Shown here: in pieces, positions 32,815 through 55,314 of the stretch
Numbering within the stretch: the stretch's first letter is position 1
Layout of the letters: each line of letters starts with the position of its first letter
From: Eledone cirrhosa
Taxonomy: Eukaryota
DNA length: 64,000 bases
Direction of reading: 5' to 3'
NCBI GenBank assembly: GCA_964016885.1
Contig: OZ024740.1
Location: 169,198,001 to 169,262,000 of the forward strand
Notes under the pieces: generated by a model
What the model saw: the letters and a program-made list of their open reading frames with translations, nothing else
Database searches by the model: none
What the model was told of the DNA's origin: nothing
Position numbers and translations under genes: made by a program

Positions 32815-34625
32815 ACTTTGATTTCCACTACTGTGCATGTTTTCTTCTCCCTGTCCCATATCATAATATCTGGTCTATTATGCCTGCATTTTATTGGTTT
32901 TTTTACTGGAACATTCCACCAGTACTCTTTCATATTATGTACATGGATGTCTTCCACATTGTTGTAGCTTTTAATGTGTTTATTATCGGGGCTATCTTTT
33001 TTACGAACTGCATTGTACAGTGTTTTGGCCACTACATCATGCCTCATAGGTAGATAGTACCGCGATGACATCTTTGGACAGCTGCTTATGACATGGGTGA
33101 TATACTCGATGTTAGTTCTGCAGAGTCTGCACTTGTTATCACATCTAGGTGTTTTGCCTGCATCCCTATCTCTTTTGTGAATCAGGTATTTCGTGCTAAT
33201 CTCCTGTTCCTGGATTGCAAAAGCGTATCCTTCAAAGTGGGAGCCAATATTGCGGTTGTTGGTCCAAGATAGACTACTTTCCTTATCTATATTACTCTCA
33301 CTCTGGAGCTTCCTGGCAACATATTCATGCATGATTTTTTGCTGAGAGGCATGCAGCTTTTCAGCCATAGATTCACTGCGATACTGCTGAGCGACATCTC
33401 TTGGTGTGAGTTTTTGATTATCACACAGGGAATATCTCTCAAGGAGTTCCTTCCCAACTCTCATGATCTTATCTGTTTCATGCAGATAGACTTGCTCGAG
33501 AAACGGGCTCCTACGCTTCGAGGTTCGTAGATGTTGTCGGAGGGATATAATGTGACATTCAAATGTTGTCTGGACTGATGTTAGGCCTCTGCCTCCCTGC
33601 TTACGTTTCAAGTAAAGGCGGTCTATGTCACTGTTGATGTGGAAGTTTCCGGTGTTGTTCAGTATTTTTCGAGTTCCAACATCAACTGCTCGGATTTCGT
33701 CTATCGTCCAATTGAGTATTCCAAACGTTGGTGTTAGAACAGGCACAGCAAACACATTGTGAGCCACTGTTTTGTTTTGCGCAGAGAGTTCTGATGACCA
33801 GATCTTTCTTAATCGGGTGTAGTATTCCCTGGTTACGCGTTCTTTATTACAGATACCATTATAGGATATGTTCTCATCTATCCCCAGGTATCTGTAGCAG
33901 TCCTCATCAGATATCGGTGAAACAGTTAGACCATTGATGACAATGTTGCTAGATTGGGTTGTTGTTTTTCCCCGCTTTACAGACATGTATGAGCATTTAT
34001 CTTGGCCAAACTCCATTCCTATATCCTTTGAGAACGTTGTAACCAGGTCAATATTTTTCTTCATTCCATCCATGTTCTTGGCATAGAGTTTCAGATCGTC
34101 CGCAAAGAAATTATGGGTTAGGTTCGTATTTCTGTCCTCCCGTGAGCCAATGATGTATCCCTCACATTTCTTGAGCAGAAAGGACAAGGGGTTTAATGAC
34201 AAGATGAACAATATCACAGAGAGACTGTCCCCCTGAAATATACCCCTGCAATATTTTATTTTATCAGTGAAAATAGAGTCCCTCCTCTCTGTCTTTAACC
34301 TTAGGATAGTAGCCCAAGAAGAAGACAGCCTCTCTATGGCTCTGACAATAATGTCTGGGACTTTAGCAAGTTGGAGGGCCTCTATCATCCAAGAGTGGGG
34401 AACAGAATCGCTAGCTTTCCTGTAGTCCAGCCAGACTGTAGTCATATTCCTCTTAAGTTGTCGCACCTCCGACATCGCAGTTTTGTTGATTAGGAGTTGT
34501 TCAGTACATCCCCAAACCCCTTTCTTTCCAGCTGCTTGTTCATCTGTGATGATGTTATTATTTTCACAGTGATCTTGGAGGAATAGGTTCAGGAAGGCTG
34601 TATACATCTTATACATCAGGTTGTA
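32815..34625 (-). mobile_element. 5'-truncated R4/Dong-like (RLE) non-LTR retrotransposon
   Basis: Open ORF with WLDYRKA.DSVPH, GIFQGDSLS, FFADDLKLY, YRYLGI, CCHC knuckle CRLC...HVISSC, RHD, and NRPDI...VEI (PD-D/ExK). The C-terminus is cut by a TA array. A further C-terminal relic lies at about 32330-32712. Confidence 0.9.
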
Positions 34626-34629
34626 TGTA

Positions 34630-36960
34630 TGTTATCACTTTCTCTTAATTTCGAGTATATTTTTTTGACCGGTCACCTTCCTGGTGGCAAGGTTGTAAAA
34701 CAAAAGAAATTGTCATCCCTTGAATCGCAAGAATGTTTTGCAAATTTTGAAGGTGCCAGCTGCGCAGCCATTTGTAGACTATGAATTAGGGAGCTGCGCT
34801 TTTTGTCCGCAAATCCAAGTTCAGTCATACTTTGGTCCAAGCGGGTTGGTATATAACCCGTAGCTCCAATAATGATGGATATGAAGCTAAAGGTGTATAT
34901 TCGATACTGGATTTGTAAACTCCTCATCAATGGTCCGTAGATGTCCTCCTTCTCCTGTATTTTTCTGACAACGTTTACATCAAGTGGGCAGCTGATCTCC
35001 ACAACAGAACACGTTTTCAATGTGTGGTCCCAAACCACAATATCAGGCCGGTTGTGCTTTAATTTGATGGCAGTTTTTATTTTCAGGTTCCACCAGTATT
35101 CCTTAGTGCCATCTGTCTCAATATATTCTTCCTCGTTTGTTTTTAATTTTGTTTTCCGAAGTGCGTTCCAGATGGTTCTAGCTATCCCATCGTGTCTCAT
35201 GGGGAGGTAGTAGCGAGATGACATTCTTTCGCAGCTGGCAACAATGTGGCTTACATCCTCGATCTTTGTTTTACATAGCCTACATTTATTGTCAGCTGCT
35301 CGCCCTCCCCTTTTGTGCAGCAGATATTTGGTAGGGAGTTCTTGTTCCTGTATTGCATAGAGATATCCCTCAAGGTGTGATGTCATAAACTTGTCGGAAC
35401 TCCATGCCAGGCTTTTTGAGTGGTTTATCCCCTCTATGGTCTGTGTTTTACGTCTCAAGTATCCGTGGACAACTTTTTCTGTAAATTGGTTAAATTTTTC
35501 ATCTTGTTTGAACATTGAATAGGATCTTCCGATTTCTCTGGGTGAGAGATTTATCAGGCTTTATTCCATATCTCTCCTCCAGATCAGTCGCTATTCTAAT
35601 GATATTTTTTTTTCATGCTCATAAACCTGGGCAAGATGGTTGCCAACCTTTTTCCTCTGTTGAAGGTGTTGCTTCAGTGTTACTATCCGAGTCTCATATG
35701 TTGTTAATATGGATTTTAGACCCCCGGCCACCTTCCTTGAGTGAGAAGTATAGCCTATCCACATCACCATTGATGTTAAAGTTCCCAGTAACACTGAAAA
35801 GTTCGCGAGTTCTAACATCCATCTCACTTAGTTCTTGCAATGACCAGTTCAGCAGGCCAAATGTTGGCGTTAGAATTGGCACAGCATAAGTATTGTGGGA
35901 AATGTATTTGTTGTACGCTGACAGTTCTGATGACCATATTTTCTTTACTCTTCTGAGGTATTCAGTTCTGGTTCTCTCCTTATTTATGGATCCATCATAT
36001 CTGACATTCTCATCCTGTCCAAGATATCTGTAGTTGTCACCTGTAGAGGTTGTATTGTCAGGCCGTTCATCTCTAGATTTCTAGAGGAGGGAACAACTCT
36101 TCCACGTTTTACTGCCAAATATGCACACTTGGACTCACCAAATTTTATTTTGATGTCTGTTGAAAATTGTGTAATGAGGTCCAATTGTTTCTTGATGTCA
36201 TTGATATTTGGCCCATACAACTTCAGGTCATCAACAAAGAAAAGATGGGAGATACTTCTGGACCCACTTCTTTGTCCACCTTGTTTCCTGAGTAGGTACG
36301 ATAGTGGATTTAGTGAGAGAATGAAGAGTAGCACTGACAAGCTATCACCCTGAAAGATGCCCTTATGGTAATGTATCTTATCAGTCTTAACTTGCTCCTT
36401 TTCACCTCTAAGGATCAAATTGGTGTACCAGTTCTTGGTCAGGCGTTCAACAGCAGCTACCAATGGTTGTGGGACTTTGGCTAACTGTAAAGCCTTAATA
36501 ATCCACCCATGAGGTACACTATCAAATGCTTTTTGATAGTCCAGCCACACCACAGTCATGTTTCTGCGATTCTTTGTTGTTTTTTCCTGAATCATTTTAT
36601 TAGTTAGTAGGTGATCTATGCAACCCCACACCTCCCTCTTTCCAGCAATTTGCTCAGGTGTTATAAAGTTGATGGTAGCACATTGATCTTGTAAGAACAG
36701 GTTAAGGCACCCAGTATATAATTTATACATGATGTTTTGGCAGGCTATTGGGCGGTAATTTTTAGCAAGGGTGGTTTGGCTATTTTGGGGAATGAGGAGA
36801 GTAGTGGCAGTTGATAACCATCTGGGCAGTTCTTGTGTGGCTTTAATGGTTTCTGTAAACAGCTGTATGAGATCTTGCCGATAGAAAGTGAAATTCTTCA
36901 ACCAGTATCCTGTAATGAGGTCTGGGCCTGGTGATTTCCTATTCGACATTTTCTGTACAG
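34630..36960 (-). mobile_element. Second, divergent R4/Dong-like element (frameshifted), head-to-tail with the first
   Basis: KSPGPD, NYRPIAC, WLDYQKAFDSVPH, FQGDSLS, FVDDLKLY, CRLC...HIVASC, RHD, NRPDIVV...VEISCP. Confidence 0.9.
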
Positions 36961-37535
36961 CTGTTTCCAGTATGAAATTATGGCTGTCAACGTGAACAAG
37001 TTTTCATTAAATTTTCGTGTCCTTATTTGGAAATCCATTCTGTAGGAATAAGGACACGAAAATTTAATGAAAACTTGTTTCATTTATAACCAACCAAAAA
37101 AAAAGCCTTCGTGAGCCCCTTTTTTCAAGTAAAAAGAAATTCAAACACTCATATATGAAAAAAACAACCTGTGACAACCCCCCCTCTTATTTGAAGAACT
37201 ATTGTAACGCGAACTGGCGCGAAATTTATTATAATTATTGACAAACCAATCAAATTACTTCTCGAAAAACCTGGTATTTCGAGCCACTTTTTCCATATAA
37301 AACAAGTAACATTCAGAGACCAACCAGATGTGAGAAAAACCACAGACCCTCCATCTCAACTCACCTTTTGAAAAGCAGAAGAACTGCGAAACCGGTAAAG
37401 GAACCAAATAAATATATATATTTAAAAAAAAAAAATAAGACTCCAGTTGCATTTTTGATTTCATCTCTTTTTCTTTATACTTTCACTCGTGTAGGACACC
37501 TCGGTTAGTTTTCATTTTGTAAAAAAAAACCTCAC

Positions 37536-37564
<29 letters not shown>

Positions 37565-37566
<2 letters not shown>

Positions 37567-37702
37567 ACGAAGGAAATGTGGTAAGGAACCAGGTGGACCA
37601 TAACGCACCAAAGTACTCAATACTTGAGGTAGTAGAGTGGGTAATAGGAACCAGTAAGACCCCGAAAGCTGAGCTCAAGCCGTTTCGACGGCTAATTCTG
37701 GA

Positions 37703-37706
<4 letters not shown>
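37565..37706 (-). repeat. Family B cassette, single arm, truncated inside helix II
   Basis: Almost identical to 17578-17719 and flanked by TA on both sides. Confidence 0.85.
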
Positions 37707-37738: not shown

Positions 37739-40700
37739 TTCAAAATATTAACAAAAATAGAACTGCTTGTGATCAAGTATATTTTATTATACATATTTCA
37801 GAGGTACTGAGCTAACTTCAACAGTACGTCCTCATCAGATAAAATAAGATGATGCATGACATACCCTGACATAGAAGATGTTTAAGATCCAGTCATGGTA
37901 GTGAGTAAGATATGACAAAACTCAATATTTATATACCTTAAAAACCTACATATAATACATATAATACAGAGGGTGCGTGTAAGAAAGCTTAAAAATACAT
38001 AACAGTAATTTACATAACTGTTAGAGATTCAAATAATTATTGAAGAAAAAGGAAGAAAAAAGACAGAGAGAAAACAGATGAGGGGAAAATATAGCTAGAA
38101 AAGGTATAGAGAGCAAAAGAGAATTGATCATGAAAAGGGAGACAAAGAGGAGTAATTATAAATATCTCTACATGACTATACATTTGGGCATAGCTATGCG
38201 ATAGAGTAAACTCGAATCAATGAATTATCTAGAAATATTCATCAATCTAAATCATAAATATAACTGGGTGTAATCAATAAAGGTTAATTTCCTTAGTTAA
38301 TTAGTTATATATACCATCCAAACGTATCTGGTTGACCGTTAACTTTTAAATCATTTAAGTTAGTTCAGAGTAATGAATTAATTAAAGTGTATAATATTTC
38401 AGGCTATAAAAGTTTATAAATATCTGTATTAATATTAAAGTATACTATCATATTTAATTTATAAAATCATATTTTATGAATTCATATTTAAACTATTTAC
38501 AAACATGAGAGAGAAGACATGCTATTTATCATCATCTCGAAGGTAAATCTTAATAATTTTTATATAATATATATAATTATTTATATTATATTGAAGATAA
38601 TTCGCATTATATAATTTATAAAATAATTACAGTTATAATTTTAAAAATTCAGATTAACAATCAGAATGCCTTAAAGCATCAAAAAGCCTTATAATTAAAC
38701 TTAAAAAAGTTTATTATTAAATTAGATATATGCATTTGTCTAAATATAAACAAAGATTCTATTGTCTAAAGATTAAGATGAAGATGATATCTATCATTTA
38801 TATATAACATAATATAAAACAATACATAAGTTACTGATAATATTGTTAAAAATTAAGGTTTTAGATCAATTATTATAATAAGGTCATGTAACACATATAT
38901 ACTATACATATACAAGTCAAACTTCTTGAATCATACGGATAAGAGTCTGATTCAAATTAAAAATGTGAATTGTCTGCGATCTTAGATTTTCTTTATAAAT
39001 ATATATAGTAGTATAATGTTCTTGCAAACATGAGAAAGAGAAAGCCTAAGGATTTCATTGACCCGAAGGTAAGCCAAATTTAATTAAATTAAATTAAATA
39101 ATAATCGTTATATAACTTAAAAAATTTAGAAAATATTTAGAACTTATTTAACGATTATAACACTAGAAAATCATTAAAGTATCTAAAGTACTTATCAATA
39201 ATAATCGTTAAATAACTTAGAGAGTTTAGAAAATATTTAGAAAATATTTAACGATTATAACACTAGAAAGTCATTAAAGTATTTAAAGTACTTATAAATG
39301 TAACTAGAAGCATGTTATTATACTAGATATACAGATTTGTTCAAATATAAATAGAGTATTCCAGATATTAGTGATCGATATACATATAATAAATAATTAG
39401 TACAATCATTGTTAGTAATGTTATAATTGAAGTTTTACATCAAGTTAAGTGGAAAATAGTTTGTCGGCTAGTATGGTGTGATGCATAAACCGTAAATATA
39501 TAAATACAAATATATAAATCAAACTTCCCGAATCGTAAAACATACTCCAAATGAATAAATATACAAAAACATAAATGTATGAATGATTTACGGTACATTA
39601 TAATTGTTAAGCGTATAAGCCATATATAAAAAAAATATACAAGAATCCCAGTCAAAAATTAAATATATCTTAACAATCAAAAGATATGCACATTCCTCAA
39701 GAGATTATGTTAACCAATAATATGTTTATATACCTAAACAGGACCCTTTAATCTAACATTAATCATATCATAAAACAGTTAAAAAATAAAAATTATTAAA
39801 GTTTTTTAATCAGTTATAACGTTGATACGCGACGTCAAAAATTAGAACCTGCTTATTTAGTGTTTTTTCCTGACTTTTTGCGAGGCTTGGAATGTAGACA
39901 AAGCTTTATGAAGGCAGTTTGTTAATTAAATTTTCACAATCAGTAATTATTAAAAGGGTCTCCATGGTACAGAGGTTGCAGTTAGGTGATATTGATGAAT
40001 TCAAATAAATTCTACTATTCCATAATTATTAAATTTTCACAATCAGTAATTATTAAAAGGGTCTCCATGGTACAGAGGTTGCAGTTAGGTGATATTGATG
40101 AATTCAAATAAATTCTACTATTACATAACTTCGCCCAAGAAATCGAGTATTTGTGATTAGCAAATCTCGATTTAAATGTCGAAGAAGTTGCGCCTATATA
40201 GTTGTATGTGATGTTATTTGCTTTTACGGTGCATTTATATACCAAATTGCTATCAACACAGTTATTTTGCAGAGGGCAACCTGGTCTATTTCTACAATTA
40301 CACTTCGATTTATTGTTATTACTATAAATTGTACTATTTACATTAACATTATTAGTATTCCGAAATGTTCTCTTGATTGCGATGTTACTGTTATTTCTAG
40401 TGTCAATATTGCTAGTCTTATTATATTCATTATCGTTAAATGTATGTTGATTTAGAATTCTACTATTTATTTTAGCGATGTTTTGGGCCATATTCATAGT
40501 TGTAGAATAAGAAAGCTTAATTGTGTGTCTGTTAAATATGGAACGGTATTTATGTTGAATGGGGAAGGATTTATCTAAAGCTTTAAAAAATAGATTTGCG
40601 ACTGGAGTTTTTATTGCTACAGAAGCCGGGGGGGGGGGGGACCATATAACTTATAACTGATTTAGTTCTGATTTTTTTCCCGATTTATTTACGGTAGTGG

Positions 40701-42377
40701 TCTTTGTATTAACATTTTTAGAATCTCGTTTATACACGTTAATCTTAGGATTATAATTCAAATTATTATCCATATATTCTATATTATTTTTATAACCTGC
40801 TTTCGTAGCGCGTCATTATAATATCCTGCTTTTTCATCAAATATGGATTTATTAGCGGATATTCTAGTTATGCGTTTCTGTACACTATTGACTATTGCGT
40901 TTTTCACAGATTTAGGGTAATTAGAGTAATAGCTAACGTAGTTTAAGTTTTCATTGGGCTTATGGAAAGGGTAATAAAAGCCTGAGTTTAAGTTAAGGGT
41001 AACGTCAAGGAAATTAACTATTTTTGTACTACTTTCAACTTCTAATTTAAGGTCGTAATTTTTAAAGAATACAATTATAGTTTTCTTAACCCAATTTAGT
41101 TCTGTATTGTTATGTTTGACAACGGTAAATAAAGTATCGTCCCTATATAAACCACCAGTAATCTCCGGTAGTTTTCTATTTACCATATTTAATATGAAAA
41201 TCCCCAGAAGATCGGTGACCTGCGCTGAGTCCGATGATCCCATGGTAATGTCAAAGTTACTATTCCTATCTGAACGGGTCCAATATTTATTGTTGAAATT
41301 AATTAGAGTTCTTCTAGCAGTTAGTATGATATCAATTTCATCCGTAGTTAGATCTGTATGTTTGTAAGCATAAGACAAAGCCTTATTTAATAGGTTAGGT
41401 GTAATAGAAGAATAATAGCTTGCTATGTCCATTTGGATGAATTTGTGATATTTCTTATTCTCTATATTTTTAAACCAGTCAATCACTTCATTAGTGTCCT
41501 TCCATAAGCTCAATTTAGACTTCAATTTCAGAGTAGGTAGAATTATATCAATAATATTCTTACTGATTACTCCAATATCCGATTTAGATGGAGTAATCAG
41601 TCTAACTGGCAGGTCTTCCTCAAAGTTTCTTTTGTGATCCTTAAAATTTATCCTCGGCTGTCTAGGTATGAAAGGCTCAGTTCTTCCTTCAATTCCAAAT
41701 TATGCTATTAATTTAAATGCATCATTATTTTTCCTTAGTTCTTTTAAAATTAAATCATTATATACTTCTTTATTTATGCCATATAAATTGTTCGTTTTGT
41801 CCGACTTCACCAATATTTTATTAACTTTTTTTATATCCAAGATTTTTTCTTTAAGAGTTCTAAGGTATTGGTGACCTTTATATGGGTTTTTCCTGAATTT
41901 AATTTTTTTTAATATATTGAGCATTTCCGTTTCAAAATCCTCCAGGAGTTTGTTGTATGGAGGATTTTTTCTAGATTTAAAGATAGTTTCGAAATAATTG
42001 CTGTTGGTTTTCCTTTTAGCTTCTTTATTATTGAAATGAAATGCACGCAATCTCACTCTTCATATAAAAGAGTTTGTTTGCTCTATAAGTTTCCTCATGT
42101 ATTCTTCATTAGATGGTATAGGTATATCTTTGGGAGATGTCGGGAATGTGAAGAATTCCATTATTTATTAAATTTGCAATCTGTTGTTTAGGAAAGCGCT
42201 CAACCTGCTGGGAGCTAGTTATTTAAAGGTTAAACAAGGTTCAATGAATAAATCAAATAATTATTTTTGCTAATATTCTGAATTAATATAACTCCGGAAA
42301 ACCATTACTGTTGAGTGCTTCCAATCTATTGTAAAATTAATTCTTTGATTTATTCATTGAACCTTGTTTAATCTTTA
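37731..42377 (-). mobile_element. Near full-length, decayed Penelope-like element (Naiad-like): RT plus C-terminal GIY-YIG, long AT-rich 3' region, HHR, and inverted 5' pLTR piece
   Basis: ATG at 42161 (MEFFTFPTSPKDIPIPS). Motifs SDKT, FDITMGSSDSAQV, GLYRDD, VNFLDVTL, CNCRNRPGCPL, YNYIGAT..FKSRFANH and CNLC. Several frameshifts and stops. 37731-37760 is an inverted match (27/30) to 42261-42290. Confidence 0.88.
37780..37846 (-). ncRNA. Type I hammerhead ribozyme at the 3' end of the Naiad-like PLE
   Basis: TATTTTAT-CTGATGA-GGAcGTACTG..12 nt..CAGTACcTCT-GAAA-TATGTA-TA^ATAAAATA. Helix I is 8 bp, helix II about 9 bp, and helix III is minimal and quasi-palindromic. Confidence 0.82.
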
Positions 42378-43960: not shown

Positions 43961-45410
43961 GAGGTAATTGAAATTAAATATATACATGCACGCCTCCATA
44001 TGTACATACACAAGCATACGCGAAAACACCCGCAATGGGTATGCAAATACAAGCACGTACACAAAAAACGCACGCACATATAGAACCCACGCAACGCCTG
44101 TACACGCATACATACGAACGTATACACCAAATACACATAAAAATATATATAAAAAAATGTATATATGTGCGTGTATATATATAATTATATAAACGCATAT
44201 AAATATACACACATAAATACGTATATAACGCGCACACACATACCTACATGTAAATACACATATGTACACAGACGTACGTCAACCAAACACAAAGAACACA
44301 TATACACACACCCTACATACGTACGAACCCGCATACTCACACAGACACAAAACTCACGTATACACATAACCATATGCACATGTACCAGTATATAATATAT
44401 ACGCCATAACATATACAAGCAAATATACGTACGAGAAAGTATACGTACCCTCACAAAACATACAGGTAATATATACTTACCTATACAAATAAGTAATGGT
44501 ATAAACATAACATATACTTAGCTACCACATCAAGACGTAAATATCCGCGTATAGTTCGTACTATCTGTTAGGGTATAATGTGGGGCTGTAATACAGGAAA
44601 GTTTGTGCAATTTATGTTTACAAGCCGAAATTGTCTCAGACTTTTTGTTTAAGATGTGGTCTTTGGCGCAGAGTATTTCCAGGGCCTCAGCTGCGCAGAG
44701 GTCACATGGTCTTTTATTTCCGTTATACGATCTAGCTTTAGCTAGGATCTCCCAGTGTAACTTATATTTGGTGTGGTTGTCTTTTAGACTCCAGATATAA
44801 GTTGAAAGTGACGTCATATTCCTTCTTAAACGGTTAAGAAAAGAATGGATATGCATGTAAAGACGCTGCTTGAATCTTTTGGCGGTTAACCCTATGTAGG
44901 CCCTACGGACGTGGGTGTTTCAACCTTACATTTGTAGACAATGTTACTAGAGAGACATTTCCCGGATAGGGGCAGTCAACCCGATTCCTACAATTACAGG
45001 TAGTACTAGCTACAGGATTGCACGTGTTCCCACGGCTAGGTAATTTAGCTAAATTTGAAGCTGTGATGTTATGTGAAAGGTTAGGAGTCGTATAGTAAGA
45101 AATTTTAATGGTATTTCTATTAAACATTTTACTATATTTATGTGCTGGGGGCACATGCTTCATAATAAGGGAGAGAAAGATCTTAGCTAATGGTGTGGCC
45201 ACCTCCATATTATATGGTGGGTTATACCATATAATCGTCGGGATCTATTTTTCCTAGGTCTACTCTCGTACTCTGTATATGCTACTTTATCGACAAATCC
45301 ACTCCGAGCGAGAGCTTCATTGTAATATGTAGAATGGTCGTTGAAAATATGCACGTTTGTAGATAGACGGGAAAGCCTCAAAGAAACGTTTCTTACCAGG
45401 TTCTTGGTTA
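43960..45410 (-). mobile_element. 5'-truncated Naiad-like PLE (RT thumb plus GIY-YIG relic and TG/TA-rich tail)
   Basis: MFNRNTIKISYYTTPNL, CNCRNRVDCP, YIGLTAKRFKQR, TSLSTYIWSLK...WEIL...CDLCAAE...LNKKSETISACKH across frameshifts. Confidence 0.85.
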
Positions 45411-45526
45411 TGCTGAACTTTAATCTGTTATTTTAATAAATATTTGCTCTACGGTTCTTATATATTTGATATATATTTATCCTTATCGAGCCTCCTTTGG
45501 ATTTTAGTCTTCAAATTTATTATAAT

Positions 45527-45573
<47 letters not shown>

Positions 45574-45577
<4 letters not shown>

Positions 45578-45759
45578 AACAAGTAAGACCCCGACGGCTG
45601 AGCTCAAGCCCTTTCGACGGCTAATTCAGAATTAGCCGTCGAAACGGCTTGAGCTCAGCCGTCGGGGTCTTACTTGTTCCTATTACCCACTCTACTACCC
45701 TAAGTATTGAGTACTTTGGTGCGTTATGGTCCACCTGGTTCCTTACCACATTTCCTTCG

Positions 45760-45762
<3 letters not shown>
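45574..45762 (+). repeat. Family B cassette with palindrome centred at 45628
   Basis: gacggctaattc-a-gaattagccgtc followed by GAAA-CGGC-TTGAGCTCA-GCCG-TC^GGGGTCTTAC. Confidence 0.85.
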
Positions 45763-45797
<35 letters not shown>

Positions 45798-45805
45798 GAT
45801 TAACG

Positions 45806-45873
<68 letters not shown>

Positions 45874-46143
45874 CGTTAATCAACTCAATAATATCTCTAT
45901 ATAATTCTCTATGAGGTATTTCTAGCTACCATTTATTGAGAGATTCAGTGCACCAGTTACAAATAACCTTGTTACTGCTTGGTTCTCAAAGATCCGAACT
46001 CAACAGTTCGGATCTAGCTGTCTAAACGGCCGGAGATCAGCCGTCGGGGTCCTGGCTCTTCTCCTATATATATATATATATATATATGAGTTTTACTATG
46101 AATTAACCATTTGTTTGGAATTAACAATTGATTGGTAGTTTTA

Positions 46144-54610: not shown

Positions 54611-55314
54611 ATAGTCATAGTAGGAGTAATCCCCATTATTATTGTTCATTTAGCTTGGGTTTGAATTTATCAATAAAATTATTTTCTTTGTTTTTTCTCT
54701 TGATATCACTTGGGCTGTGTAATTTGTAGAATGGGAATATTATAAATATTCCCTGACCACATGTTGCTATATGGTTACTTAGGGGTATCTGACGGACATT
54801 TGGGTCTTTGATTTGCTGTCGGTGTACCCGTGCACGTTCCGATAGTGCATTTCCAGTTTGACCGACATATAGTTCTTCACAATTCGGGCATTTAATGCAG
54901 TAAATTAGATTTCTGCTTTTGCAGTTCATATTTGCATTTGGGAATATTTTTCCAGTTTTTGTTTTCATATATTGACCGGCGTGTATGGATTGACATGTGC
55001 CGCATCGACTATCATTGCATTTAGATACAGTGAATGATTGGTCTTTGTTGTTAAGGTCAAACTTTGCTTTTGTTAGTAATTGCTTCAAATTTTTCGGCTG
55101 TCTTTTACTAAGAGTCAAAGATCGATCTGTGATTAATTACTTTGAGCAATGATCGGTAGGTTTGCTTTGGCAGTGTTGAAGATATTCTTCTGGTGACATG
55201 GGTTGTGTGTCATTATAAATGGTATGACCAGTTCTTGGTTTCTTCTTCTTTGGGTTGTCTTAAGTTGTTGTATAGGTATTTTTATAGCCCGCTACACATA
55301 TATACATATACATG

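Follow-up and report, generated by a model that had tools for sequence, protein, structure and literature searches.

The fold-back analysed here occupies positions 45573-45760 of a 64,000-nucleotide stretch of the Eledone cirrhosa genome (contig OZ024740.1), hereafter called the window. Two inverted arms of 55 nucleotides each (45573-45627 and 45629-45683), differing by one mismatch, flank a loop of a single nucleotide. The palindrome is predicted to fold with −102.9 kcal/mol (z −21.7), and 0 of 200 shuffled sequences fold equally well. It is bordered on either side by (TA)n target tracts (45530-45575 and 45761-45794), recognized from the sequence, and nearly all copies of the element share this (TA)n context on both sides.

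Adjoining the left tract is a short arm on the minus strand (45576-45627), delimited by self-alignment and junction comparison, which is an inverted copy starting from a GTTCC end, the first of two putative start sites for reverse transcriptase (RT). Its inner limit lies 1 nucleotide upstream of AATTAGCC, and the end of this arm, TATATAGGAA, is found in 69 of the 88 copies compared. The arms meet head-to-head at CAG (45627-45629) with a 1-nucleotide microhomology. This junction falls within a 13-nucleotide breakpoint zone in the loop of hammerhead helix II (loop II), 4-6 nucleotides downstream of the A of a putative transcription start. The right arm contains the 3′ half of a type I hammerhead ribozyme (45629-45680, plus strand), which comprises the 3′ strand of helix II, GAAA (45641-45644), helix III formed by CGGC/GCCG around the palindromic loop TTGAGCTCA, the GUC^ where cleavage is predicted (45663/45664), and the 3′ strand of helix I (GGGGT), with GTTCC at the end of the segment. 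There follows the 80-nucleotide 'tail' (45681-45760, plus strand) of a Penelope-like element (PLE), which ends in CCTTCGT, the second putative RT start. In the parent copy L034, described below, the tail runs on into an ORF, of which it is the upstream 5′ UTR.

A preliminary description of this locus had reported the palindrome, the hammerhead 3′ half and the existence of related copies, all of which stand, and each named component of the right arm (helix II strand, GAAA, CGGC/GCCG, GUC^ and GGGGT) was located. The 5′ core box of the hammerhead is absent from the fold-back, as that description also held, and the inverted arm occupies its place. Its assignment of the matching helix I and helix II strands to the left arm was not confirmed, and the fold centre lies in the loop of helix II, outside the stem. 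The proposed strands, GTAAGACCCC and GACGGCTAATTC, are plain inverted copy, and the true strands in unfolded copies are ACCCC and GCTCGGCTATTT.

Related copies in the window and the genome

A second fold-back on the minus strand (17578-17794) has the geometry attributed to it previously, with the tail on the left (tail arm 17580-17719, short arm 17736-17792) and a slippage duplication plus an A-run at the junction. The copy at 37565-37706, also on the minus strand, is a lone tail arm fused straight to (TA)n; it does end in the helix II region as suggested, but 9 nucleotides into the loop and not in the stem. Both derive from the element that gave rise to the main fold-back, with 98-99% identity. 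The copy near 17.7 kb additionally gives a sub-threshold microRNA match in Rfam.

An exact search with a 30-mer from the right arm yields 31,953 matches genome-wide and 0 for the reversed 30-mer. The fold-back pattern (spacer of 0-30 nucleotides plus tail) yields 10,173 matches, with a few sites counted twice. A sister family is represented in the window by a plus-strand fold-back (45990-46064) centred on TTAGTTC, whose left arm ends in GAACT plus an extra C. This family has 2,755 matches in the genome, and 30 loci fold back at the same TTAGT motif. Its members (loci L161-L222) are older and have a GC-rich loop II, with the TTAGT centre and the tail unchanged, and its intact copies carry the core UUGAUAA or UUGAUGA.

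Several other features were noted in the window. A second palindrome, AGTTGATTAACGT-(TA)n-ACGTTAATCAACT (45793-45887), adjoins the fold-back on the right. Two decayed minus-strand ORFs (40015-42137 and 44530-45411) are akin to the parent protein with 32-51% identity, and the TA tract of the fold-back adjoins one of them. Translations read by eye reveal LINE-type RT fragments, other GIY-YIG fragments, and a Kunitz-like cysteine-rich exon (jointly 9835-11305, 23364-23816, 32661-37003, 18378-19043, 54639-55136 and 29269-29697). Motifs of the form CUGAUGA...GAAA that resemble minimal hammerheads with an AT-rich helix I occur at 22905-22990 (plus strand) and 37770-37845 (minus strand), and these probably belong to another PLE family.

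Unfolded copies carry a putative variant hammerhead

In parent copies, the sequence upstream of the arm completes a putative ribozyme of the form ACCCC-YUGANRA-G..helix II..C-GAAA-helix III-GUC^-GGGGU. Loop II spans roughly 33 nucleotides and holds both the centre of the fold-back and the end of the copy near 37.7 kb. The preliminary description predicted intact copies in which CTGANGA precedes GACGGCTAATT. A genome-wide search for this arrangement gave 0 matches in 3.0 Gb, and the real box is YUGANRA.

The minimum free energy structure of a natural copy has the three-way topology of a type I hammerhead, although shuffled versions of this intact region fold with similar stability (z −0.33). 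Across 30 natural copies from the parent and sister families, 92.8% of 629 cells are paired, compared with 29-48% in slid controls. In three base pairs of helix II both partners vary among these copies, which derive mainly from two related families and so reflect few events, chiefly the split between those families.

At the core 3/8 positions, the first 100 of 2,426 intact matches, read by eye, include 68 with U3/A8, 30 with C3/A8, two with U3/G8, and none with C3/G8. The 30 aligned copies contain U3-A8 (21), U3-G8 (six) and C3/A8 (three, unpaired) with no C3-G8, and exhibit no compensatory change at this core pair. Position N7 takes all four bases. U4-G5-A6 and A9 were preset by the search patterns. 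Rfam reports no hammerhead in the window, in five intact loci, or at the canonical-looking motif near 37.8 kb. One subfamily, ACCCC-CTGAGAAG, accounts for about 30% of the intact matches and places C3 opposite A8. This pairing is predicted to weaken catalysis, and the subfamily might thus serve as a natural control for the cleavage-site breakpoints discussed below.

The parent element is a Penelope-like element

The locus L034 carries a full copy of the element, with direct pLTRs (3115-3609 and 6233-6727) that are 99.4% identical and spaced 3,118 bp apart. Between them lies a single ORF (3780-5936; 719 amino acids from the first Met) with RT motifs and C-terminal GIY-YIG motifs, including YRDD and VIYQC..YIGLT. 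Reading by eye also identifies RLRWRT (with R for K), SDKTG, CNCPDRSIC, CNLCSEE, and LNKK..ACKH. A Pfam search of this ORF returned 0 families. Among 8,000 candidate proteins, 2,054 are relatives, mostly unnamed, and the best listed are about 700 amino acids long with 38-54% identity.

These features agree with the published description of Hydra-clade PLEs (PMC8557442), as far as the accessible parts of that source extend: a single ORF joining RT to a C-terminal GIY-YIG domain in an element of under about 3 kb; RWK (here RWR), DKT, the CxCX5C linker, and CxxC and CxH around E and N; and a (TA)n target, a pLTR, a tail, and an inverted 5′-truncated copy. No canonical CUGANGA hammerhead was found in the pLTR among the first 100 intact matches or the 30 aligned copies, which have the variant core. 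By its motifs and architecture, set against that description, the element probably belongs to this clade, and the fold-back in the window is a mini-insertion of it in (TA)n.

The outer ends of the fold-backs are those of the long insertions. GTTCC|TA is exact in 69 of 88 sites and CCTTCGT|TA in 67 of 88, and both also terminate long insertions. Independent contigs assembled from public short-read runs, the best of which may derive from the same sample as the assembly, have loose ends into (TA)n at L034 positions 3609 and 3689, corresponding to these ends. L034 also includes an inverted copy with the tail (908-1737), and L031 and L033 are other long inverted copies of the family. The inverted tail arm of L034 matches 2867-3692 of the same locus, and the match extends over sequence that the 3′ pLTR has lost. 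Because this arm matches its own 5′ pLTR, its template would have been a tandem read-through RNA in which both ribozymes were uncut.

Arms end at a ceiling within loop II

A census was made of all 101 arms containing the 30-mer in the region C1:2.21-22.03 Mb. As had been predicted, breakpoints concentrate beside helix II: 82 of the 101 arms end within 13 nucleotides upstream of AATTAGCC (78 by BLAST and four re-read by eye). The remaining 19 continue for at least 45 nucleotides, and none stops at 14-44 nucleotides. Genome-wide, where a different anchor from that of the census was used, 4,725 arms of the common subfamilies extend at least 14 nucleotides. Junctions were compared in a list of 101 rows, of which 13 were dropped because they were nested, doubly tailed or had a deleted arm, and 88 sites remained. 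The longer arm ends most often at 6-7 nucleotides (43 of 88) or 10-11 nucleotides (18 of 88).

Position 7 is the A of a TTAGT or TCAGT motif. TTAGT is common to the parent and sister families, whereas most of loop II differs between them. In L034, this putative start A is at 3549, with another A nearby at 3545, and the predicted GUC^ cut is at 3589/3590. The ceiling also applies to non-inverted copies fused directly to (TA)n, those listed all stopping within 10 nucleotides. The independent short-read contigs reproduce the outer ends, and one contig of 60 nucleotides folds at this very spot. A 25-fold depth step coincides with the breakpoint zone, a value that represents summed contig depth and not copy number. 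A TATA-like box at −29 was considered and dropped, being seen in two subfamilies only and unconserved across subfamilies. More complex junctions also exist: L102, L149, L021 and L156 include double or triple fold-backs and short slippage duplications, and L149 combines arms from two subfamilies.

An added G at the TTAGT motif

Many arms that end at the A of TTAGT are preceded by a base that the element does not encode. In one subfamily, TATAT is joined to AGTCC through an added G in 43 copies, through C in two, and directly in 68. The frequency of the added G (39%) exceeds the approximately 5% expected from how often G follows TATAT in the flanks (p about 1e-26), and it drops to 4 of 29 for arms ending one base downstream (Fisher p 0.014 versus the start A). 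Where both arms end at the A and two bases lie between them, at least one cDNA end has an extra C in 13 of 15 sites (p 0.012). In the sister family, 22 sites (among the first 100 of 110 rows, by eye) have both arms at the A and a single C:G between them.

This untemplated G before the A of TTAGT is likely the footprint of an mRNA cap. We infer that TTAGT acts as a Pol II initiator and that the added G is a copied cap. At full-length 5′ ends of L1, a non-templated G in front of a pyrimidine-purine start has been interpreted likewise (PMC9341517), and an internal Inr/DPE promoter is reported within the Penelope pLTR (PMC2377424), according to the accessible portions of both papers.

A different junction class, CTGGAC+G, receives a G after position 6 whatever the partner arm. 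In the control for this class, the first 100 rows gave A 78, C 18 and T 4, and G is enriched there without a cap partner. One cap test (C 45, T 3, G 2; n = 50), which looked decisive beside its companion count (C in 0 of 4), is therefore confounded by the position-6 class. In two other cap tests the partner arm templates the base, and they were discarded as controls. The CTGGAC+G point is the centre of zero-loop palindromes at about 200 sites, and hairpin opening of the kind that creates P-nucleotides is one option for the source of this G.

Further breakpoints lie at the predicted cleavage site

Fold-backs centred near helix I constitute a separate class of 258 sites, or 371 if a wider window is used. 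In 33 of the first 50 of these 371, read by eye, the longer arm ends exactly at GUC^, and the narrower set of 258 gives a similar picture. Among these 33, 19 have untemplated A/T and 10 have no spacer; the ten spacer-less junctions could reflect CG microhomology one base further on. The other rows among the first 50 extend 2-13 nucleotides beyond on one arm (14) or fall short (three). All 20 sites fetched from this class have a short arm of 17-19 nucleotides, a tail arm, and TA-rich flanks.

Where a single base is added at the cut, it is A in five copies and T in 3-5, in fixed orientation, so that either polarity occurs. The added base thus differs between the two breakpoints, being A at the GUC^ cut and C on the cDNA at the putative start. 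RTs add A at the end of an uncapped template, and a difference from the C at the start is what would be expected if the cut end is uncapped. The GUC^ class is therefore likely to be a footprint of self-cleavage in vivo by the variant ribozyme, with self-cleaved read-through RNA (5′-OH) as the presumed template.

One cDNA or two

The preliminary description proposed that a single cDNA stalls at or leaves the helix II hairpin, folds back, and primes its own copying, as Arkhipova (2013) suggested for palindromes at inverted PLE junctions (PMC3846280, from the accessible text). Certain observations fit such a process. Both arms of an insertion agree at subfamily columns in 69 of 88 sites, where 16.5 would be expected by shuffling, and recurrent junctions use short palindromic microhomologies (CTGTACAG, ATTC/GAAT).

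The reach of the two arms was also compared. A cDNA primed at GTTCC lacks the tail and cannot be copied into a tailed arm. Any single snap-back would therefore have to begin at the tail, and its tail arm could not be the shorter of the two. Among the 88 sites, the tail arm is longer in 43, the arms are equal in 19, and the short arm is longer in 26, in 16 of these by at least 3 nucleotides. The excess of longer tail arms among the 69 asymmetric junctions is in the direction expected for self-priming, although it is slight (p 0.053), and a single snap-back cannot give the 26 in which the short arm reaches further. Only four rare variants are common to both arms compared with 82 found on one arm, and later exchange between arms is therefore unlikely to have scrambled the polarity. 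Furthermore, non-inverted copies have the same ceiling and the same extra G, a second class folds at GUC^ some 40 nucleotides away from helix II, and zero-loop palindromes are common, with one such junction present at about 200 sites. For these reasons, copy-back on the helix II hairpin is an unlikely general source of the palindromes, although some copies may be snap-backs.

The data are best fitted by the head-to-head joining of two cDNAs that in most cases share their RNA, or at least its source. Agreement between the arms is as compatible with two RNAs from one active source as with one template, and a few clear subfamily mismatches between arms exist (L086, L141 and L149).

A second possibility is that arms end at the ceiling because a long read-through RNA is structurally blocked, or cut by a host nuclease, in loop II, and that no transcription start is involved. 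Hammerheads form loop-loop contacts that involve loop II, and this reading would accommodate the existence of two peaks (6-7 and 10-11 nucleotides) instead of one, as well as the G after position 6. However, such a block would have to add C to the cDNA at the A of TTAGT and A at the ribozyme cut, which is the pattern of capped versus uncapped ends. It would also have to explain the conservation of TTAGT within a loop II that has otherwise largely diverged, and why 19 of 101 arms pass through with no stops at 14-44 nucleotides. We judge this reading improbable.

Long palindromes are unstable in genomes, and since long inverted copies do exist (L031, L033 and L034), fold-backs might have lost their centres later, or might be assembly artefacts. 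Deletions would not be expected to halt at the same two points of the element and to leave particular bases added there, and the unique flanks, together with the outer ends, depth step and folding contig found in independent short-read data, make both versions highly improbable.

Finally, the preliminary description envisaged a route from ribozyme to MITE-like fold-back DNA, and although the fold-backs are short, non-coding, inverted, high-copy and TA-flanked, their amplification as units by a DNA transposase is scarcely credible and the MITE reading is largely refuted, because the inversion is internal and asymmetric (80-nucleotide tail on one side only), 53 distinct junctions in 88 sites indicate independent births, and the termini are putative RT start sites that coincide with the ends of full-length retroelement copies. 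Terminal inverted repeats and uniform copies, as in MITEs, are not found given the asymmetric ends and the 53 junction types, and target-site duplications are not readable inside (TA)n. Non-LTR retrozymes were also considered. These consist of tandem units that each contain a whole type I hammerhead (bioRxiv 10.64898/2026.07.22.740005, in its accessible part), and were rejected for these dispersed half-ribozyme fold-backs.

Proposed mechanism

We favour a model in which two cDNAs initiated at the tail sites run off a likely capped RNA 5′ end in loop II and are joined head-to-head, and on the sequence evidence we consider this account probable. The enzyme would cut both strands of the (TA)n target, and each target 3′ end would prime at one tail site, aided by TAT matching. 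Both cDNAs would then run off the RNA 5′ end, which mostly would be the capped start within loop II, leaving 58 and 138 nucleotides to be copied, but at times would be the cut made by the ribozyme, leaving 17 and 97 nucleotides. Presumably, host end-joining, by microhomology or blunt, would fuse the two cDNAs.

The main mRNA would begin downstream of the YUGANAA box, and thus would contain half a ribozyme and escape cleavage. By contrast, read-through RNA from an upstream copy would include the whole ribozyme and could be cut. Full-length copies would arise only from uncut read-through RNA, and most insertions would consequently be abortive fold-backs of 190-220 bp. A fuller version of this scheme holds that the promoter start is nested in the ribozyme, that the capped mRNA is uncleavable, that a U3-A8 hammerhead cuts the read-through RNA in vivo, and that the RT, acting as a dimer, makes two cDNAs of either RNA, one from each tail site, and links them head-to-head. 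For this combination as a whole, we regard the case for and against as evenly balanced.

Comparison with known retroelements

Earlier publications already describe tails, inverted pLTRs, promoters within pLTRs, and junctions that are palindromic, and the fold-back is a very abundant by-product of a known retroelement class. In L1 twin priming, two target ends likewise prime two cDNAs to produce an inversion, but these copy non-overlapping parts of the RNA, whereas those proposed here overlap fully and yield a palindrome. An extra G at full-length 5′ ends of L1 is described in the accessible part of PMC9341517.

Published Hydra-clade hammerheads have a CUGANGA core and a loop II of 3-10 nucleotides, in contrast to the variant core (YUGANRA) and loop of about 33 nucleotides found here, and the tail is 30-40 bp in that clade compared with 80 nucleotides (PMC8557442). 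Minimal fold-backs dominate in E. cirrhosa, a feature that the accessible parts of the same paper do not describe for the Hydra clade.

For PAc Poseidon, two internal RT starts bound the tail in vitro, and the similarities with the present element, as modelled above, include cutting and extension of both target strands, an AT-rich target, a predicted dimer, the location of the tail between the two RT starts, and the position of the hammerhead upstream of these starts (PMC11167929). In the sections of that study available to us, the joining step is left open, and no RNA-seq reads end at the hammerhead cut. Unlike PAc Poseidon, as described there, the breakpoints in our family pile up at the predicted cut and the predicted start within the ribozyme, and both putative RT starts precede a TAT that matches the target. 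How PLE insertion is completed and what the hammerhead does are stated as open in the accessible text of both reports (PMC8557442, PMC11167929).

Partial accounts of Penelope in Drosophila virilis and of PLEs in Adineta vaga (PMC2377424, PMC3846280) likewise report an Inr-type promoter in the pLTR, as well as head-to-head inverted pLTRs with palindromic junctions. There, the palindromes are read as self-priming on an antisense template, and in the accessible text starts are not tied to breakpoints. The Cercyon PLEs of Schistosoma (PMC4209133, accessible part) share the U3-A8 core, a bulged helix II, a palindromic loop III, and pairs of motifs on opposite strands. The present family differs from them by its full 5-bp helix III, its long loop II with a putative start, and its U3-G8 and C3/A8 subfamilies. 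In the plant retrozyme NbRZ1, transcription begins upstream of the cut and the resulting RNA undergoes cleavage, according to the available portion of PMC12029980, which is the opposite of the arrangement proposed here. In the literature searched, outside which most subscription papers lie, we found no report that breakpoints of PLE fold-backs fall at a start site or at a cut site.

Implications

Junctions numbering in the thousands give testable positions for a start inside the ribozyme, for a cut apparently used in vivo, and for the joining of two cDNAs. Any genome rich in PLEs can be examined by counting junctions in this way, and repeats of this type are prone to being misfiled as MITEs or hairpin RNA genes. 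If the proposed mechanism is true, roughly ten thousand fold-backs would preserve, as fossils, the positions of the two RNA 5′ ends to the exact base, and the inverted pLTRs of PLEs would have a general explanation. The hammerheads of PLEs would then function as switches between mRNA and read-through RNA.
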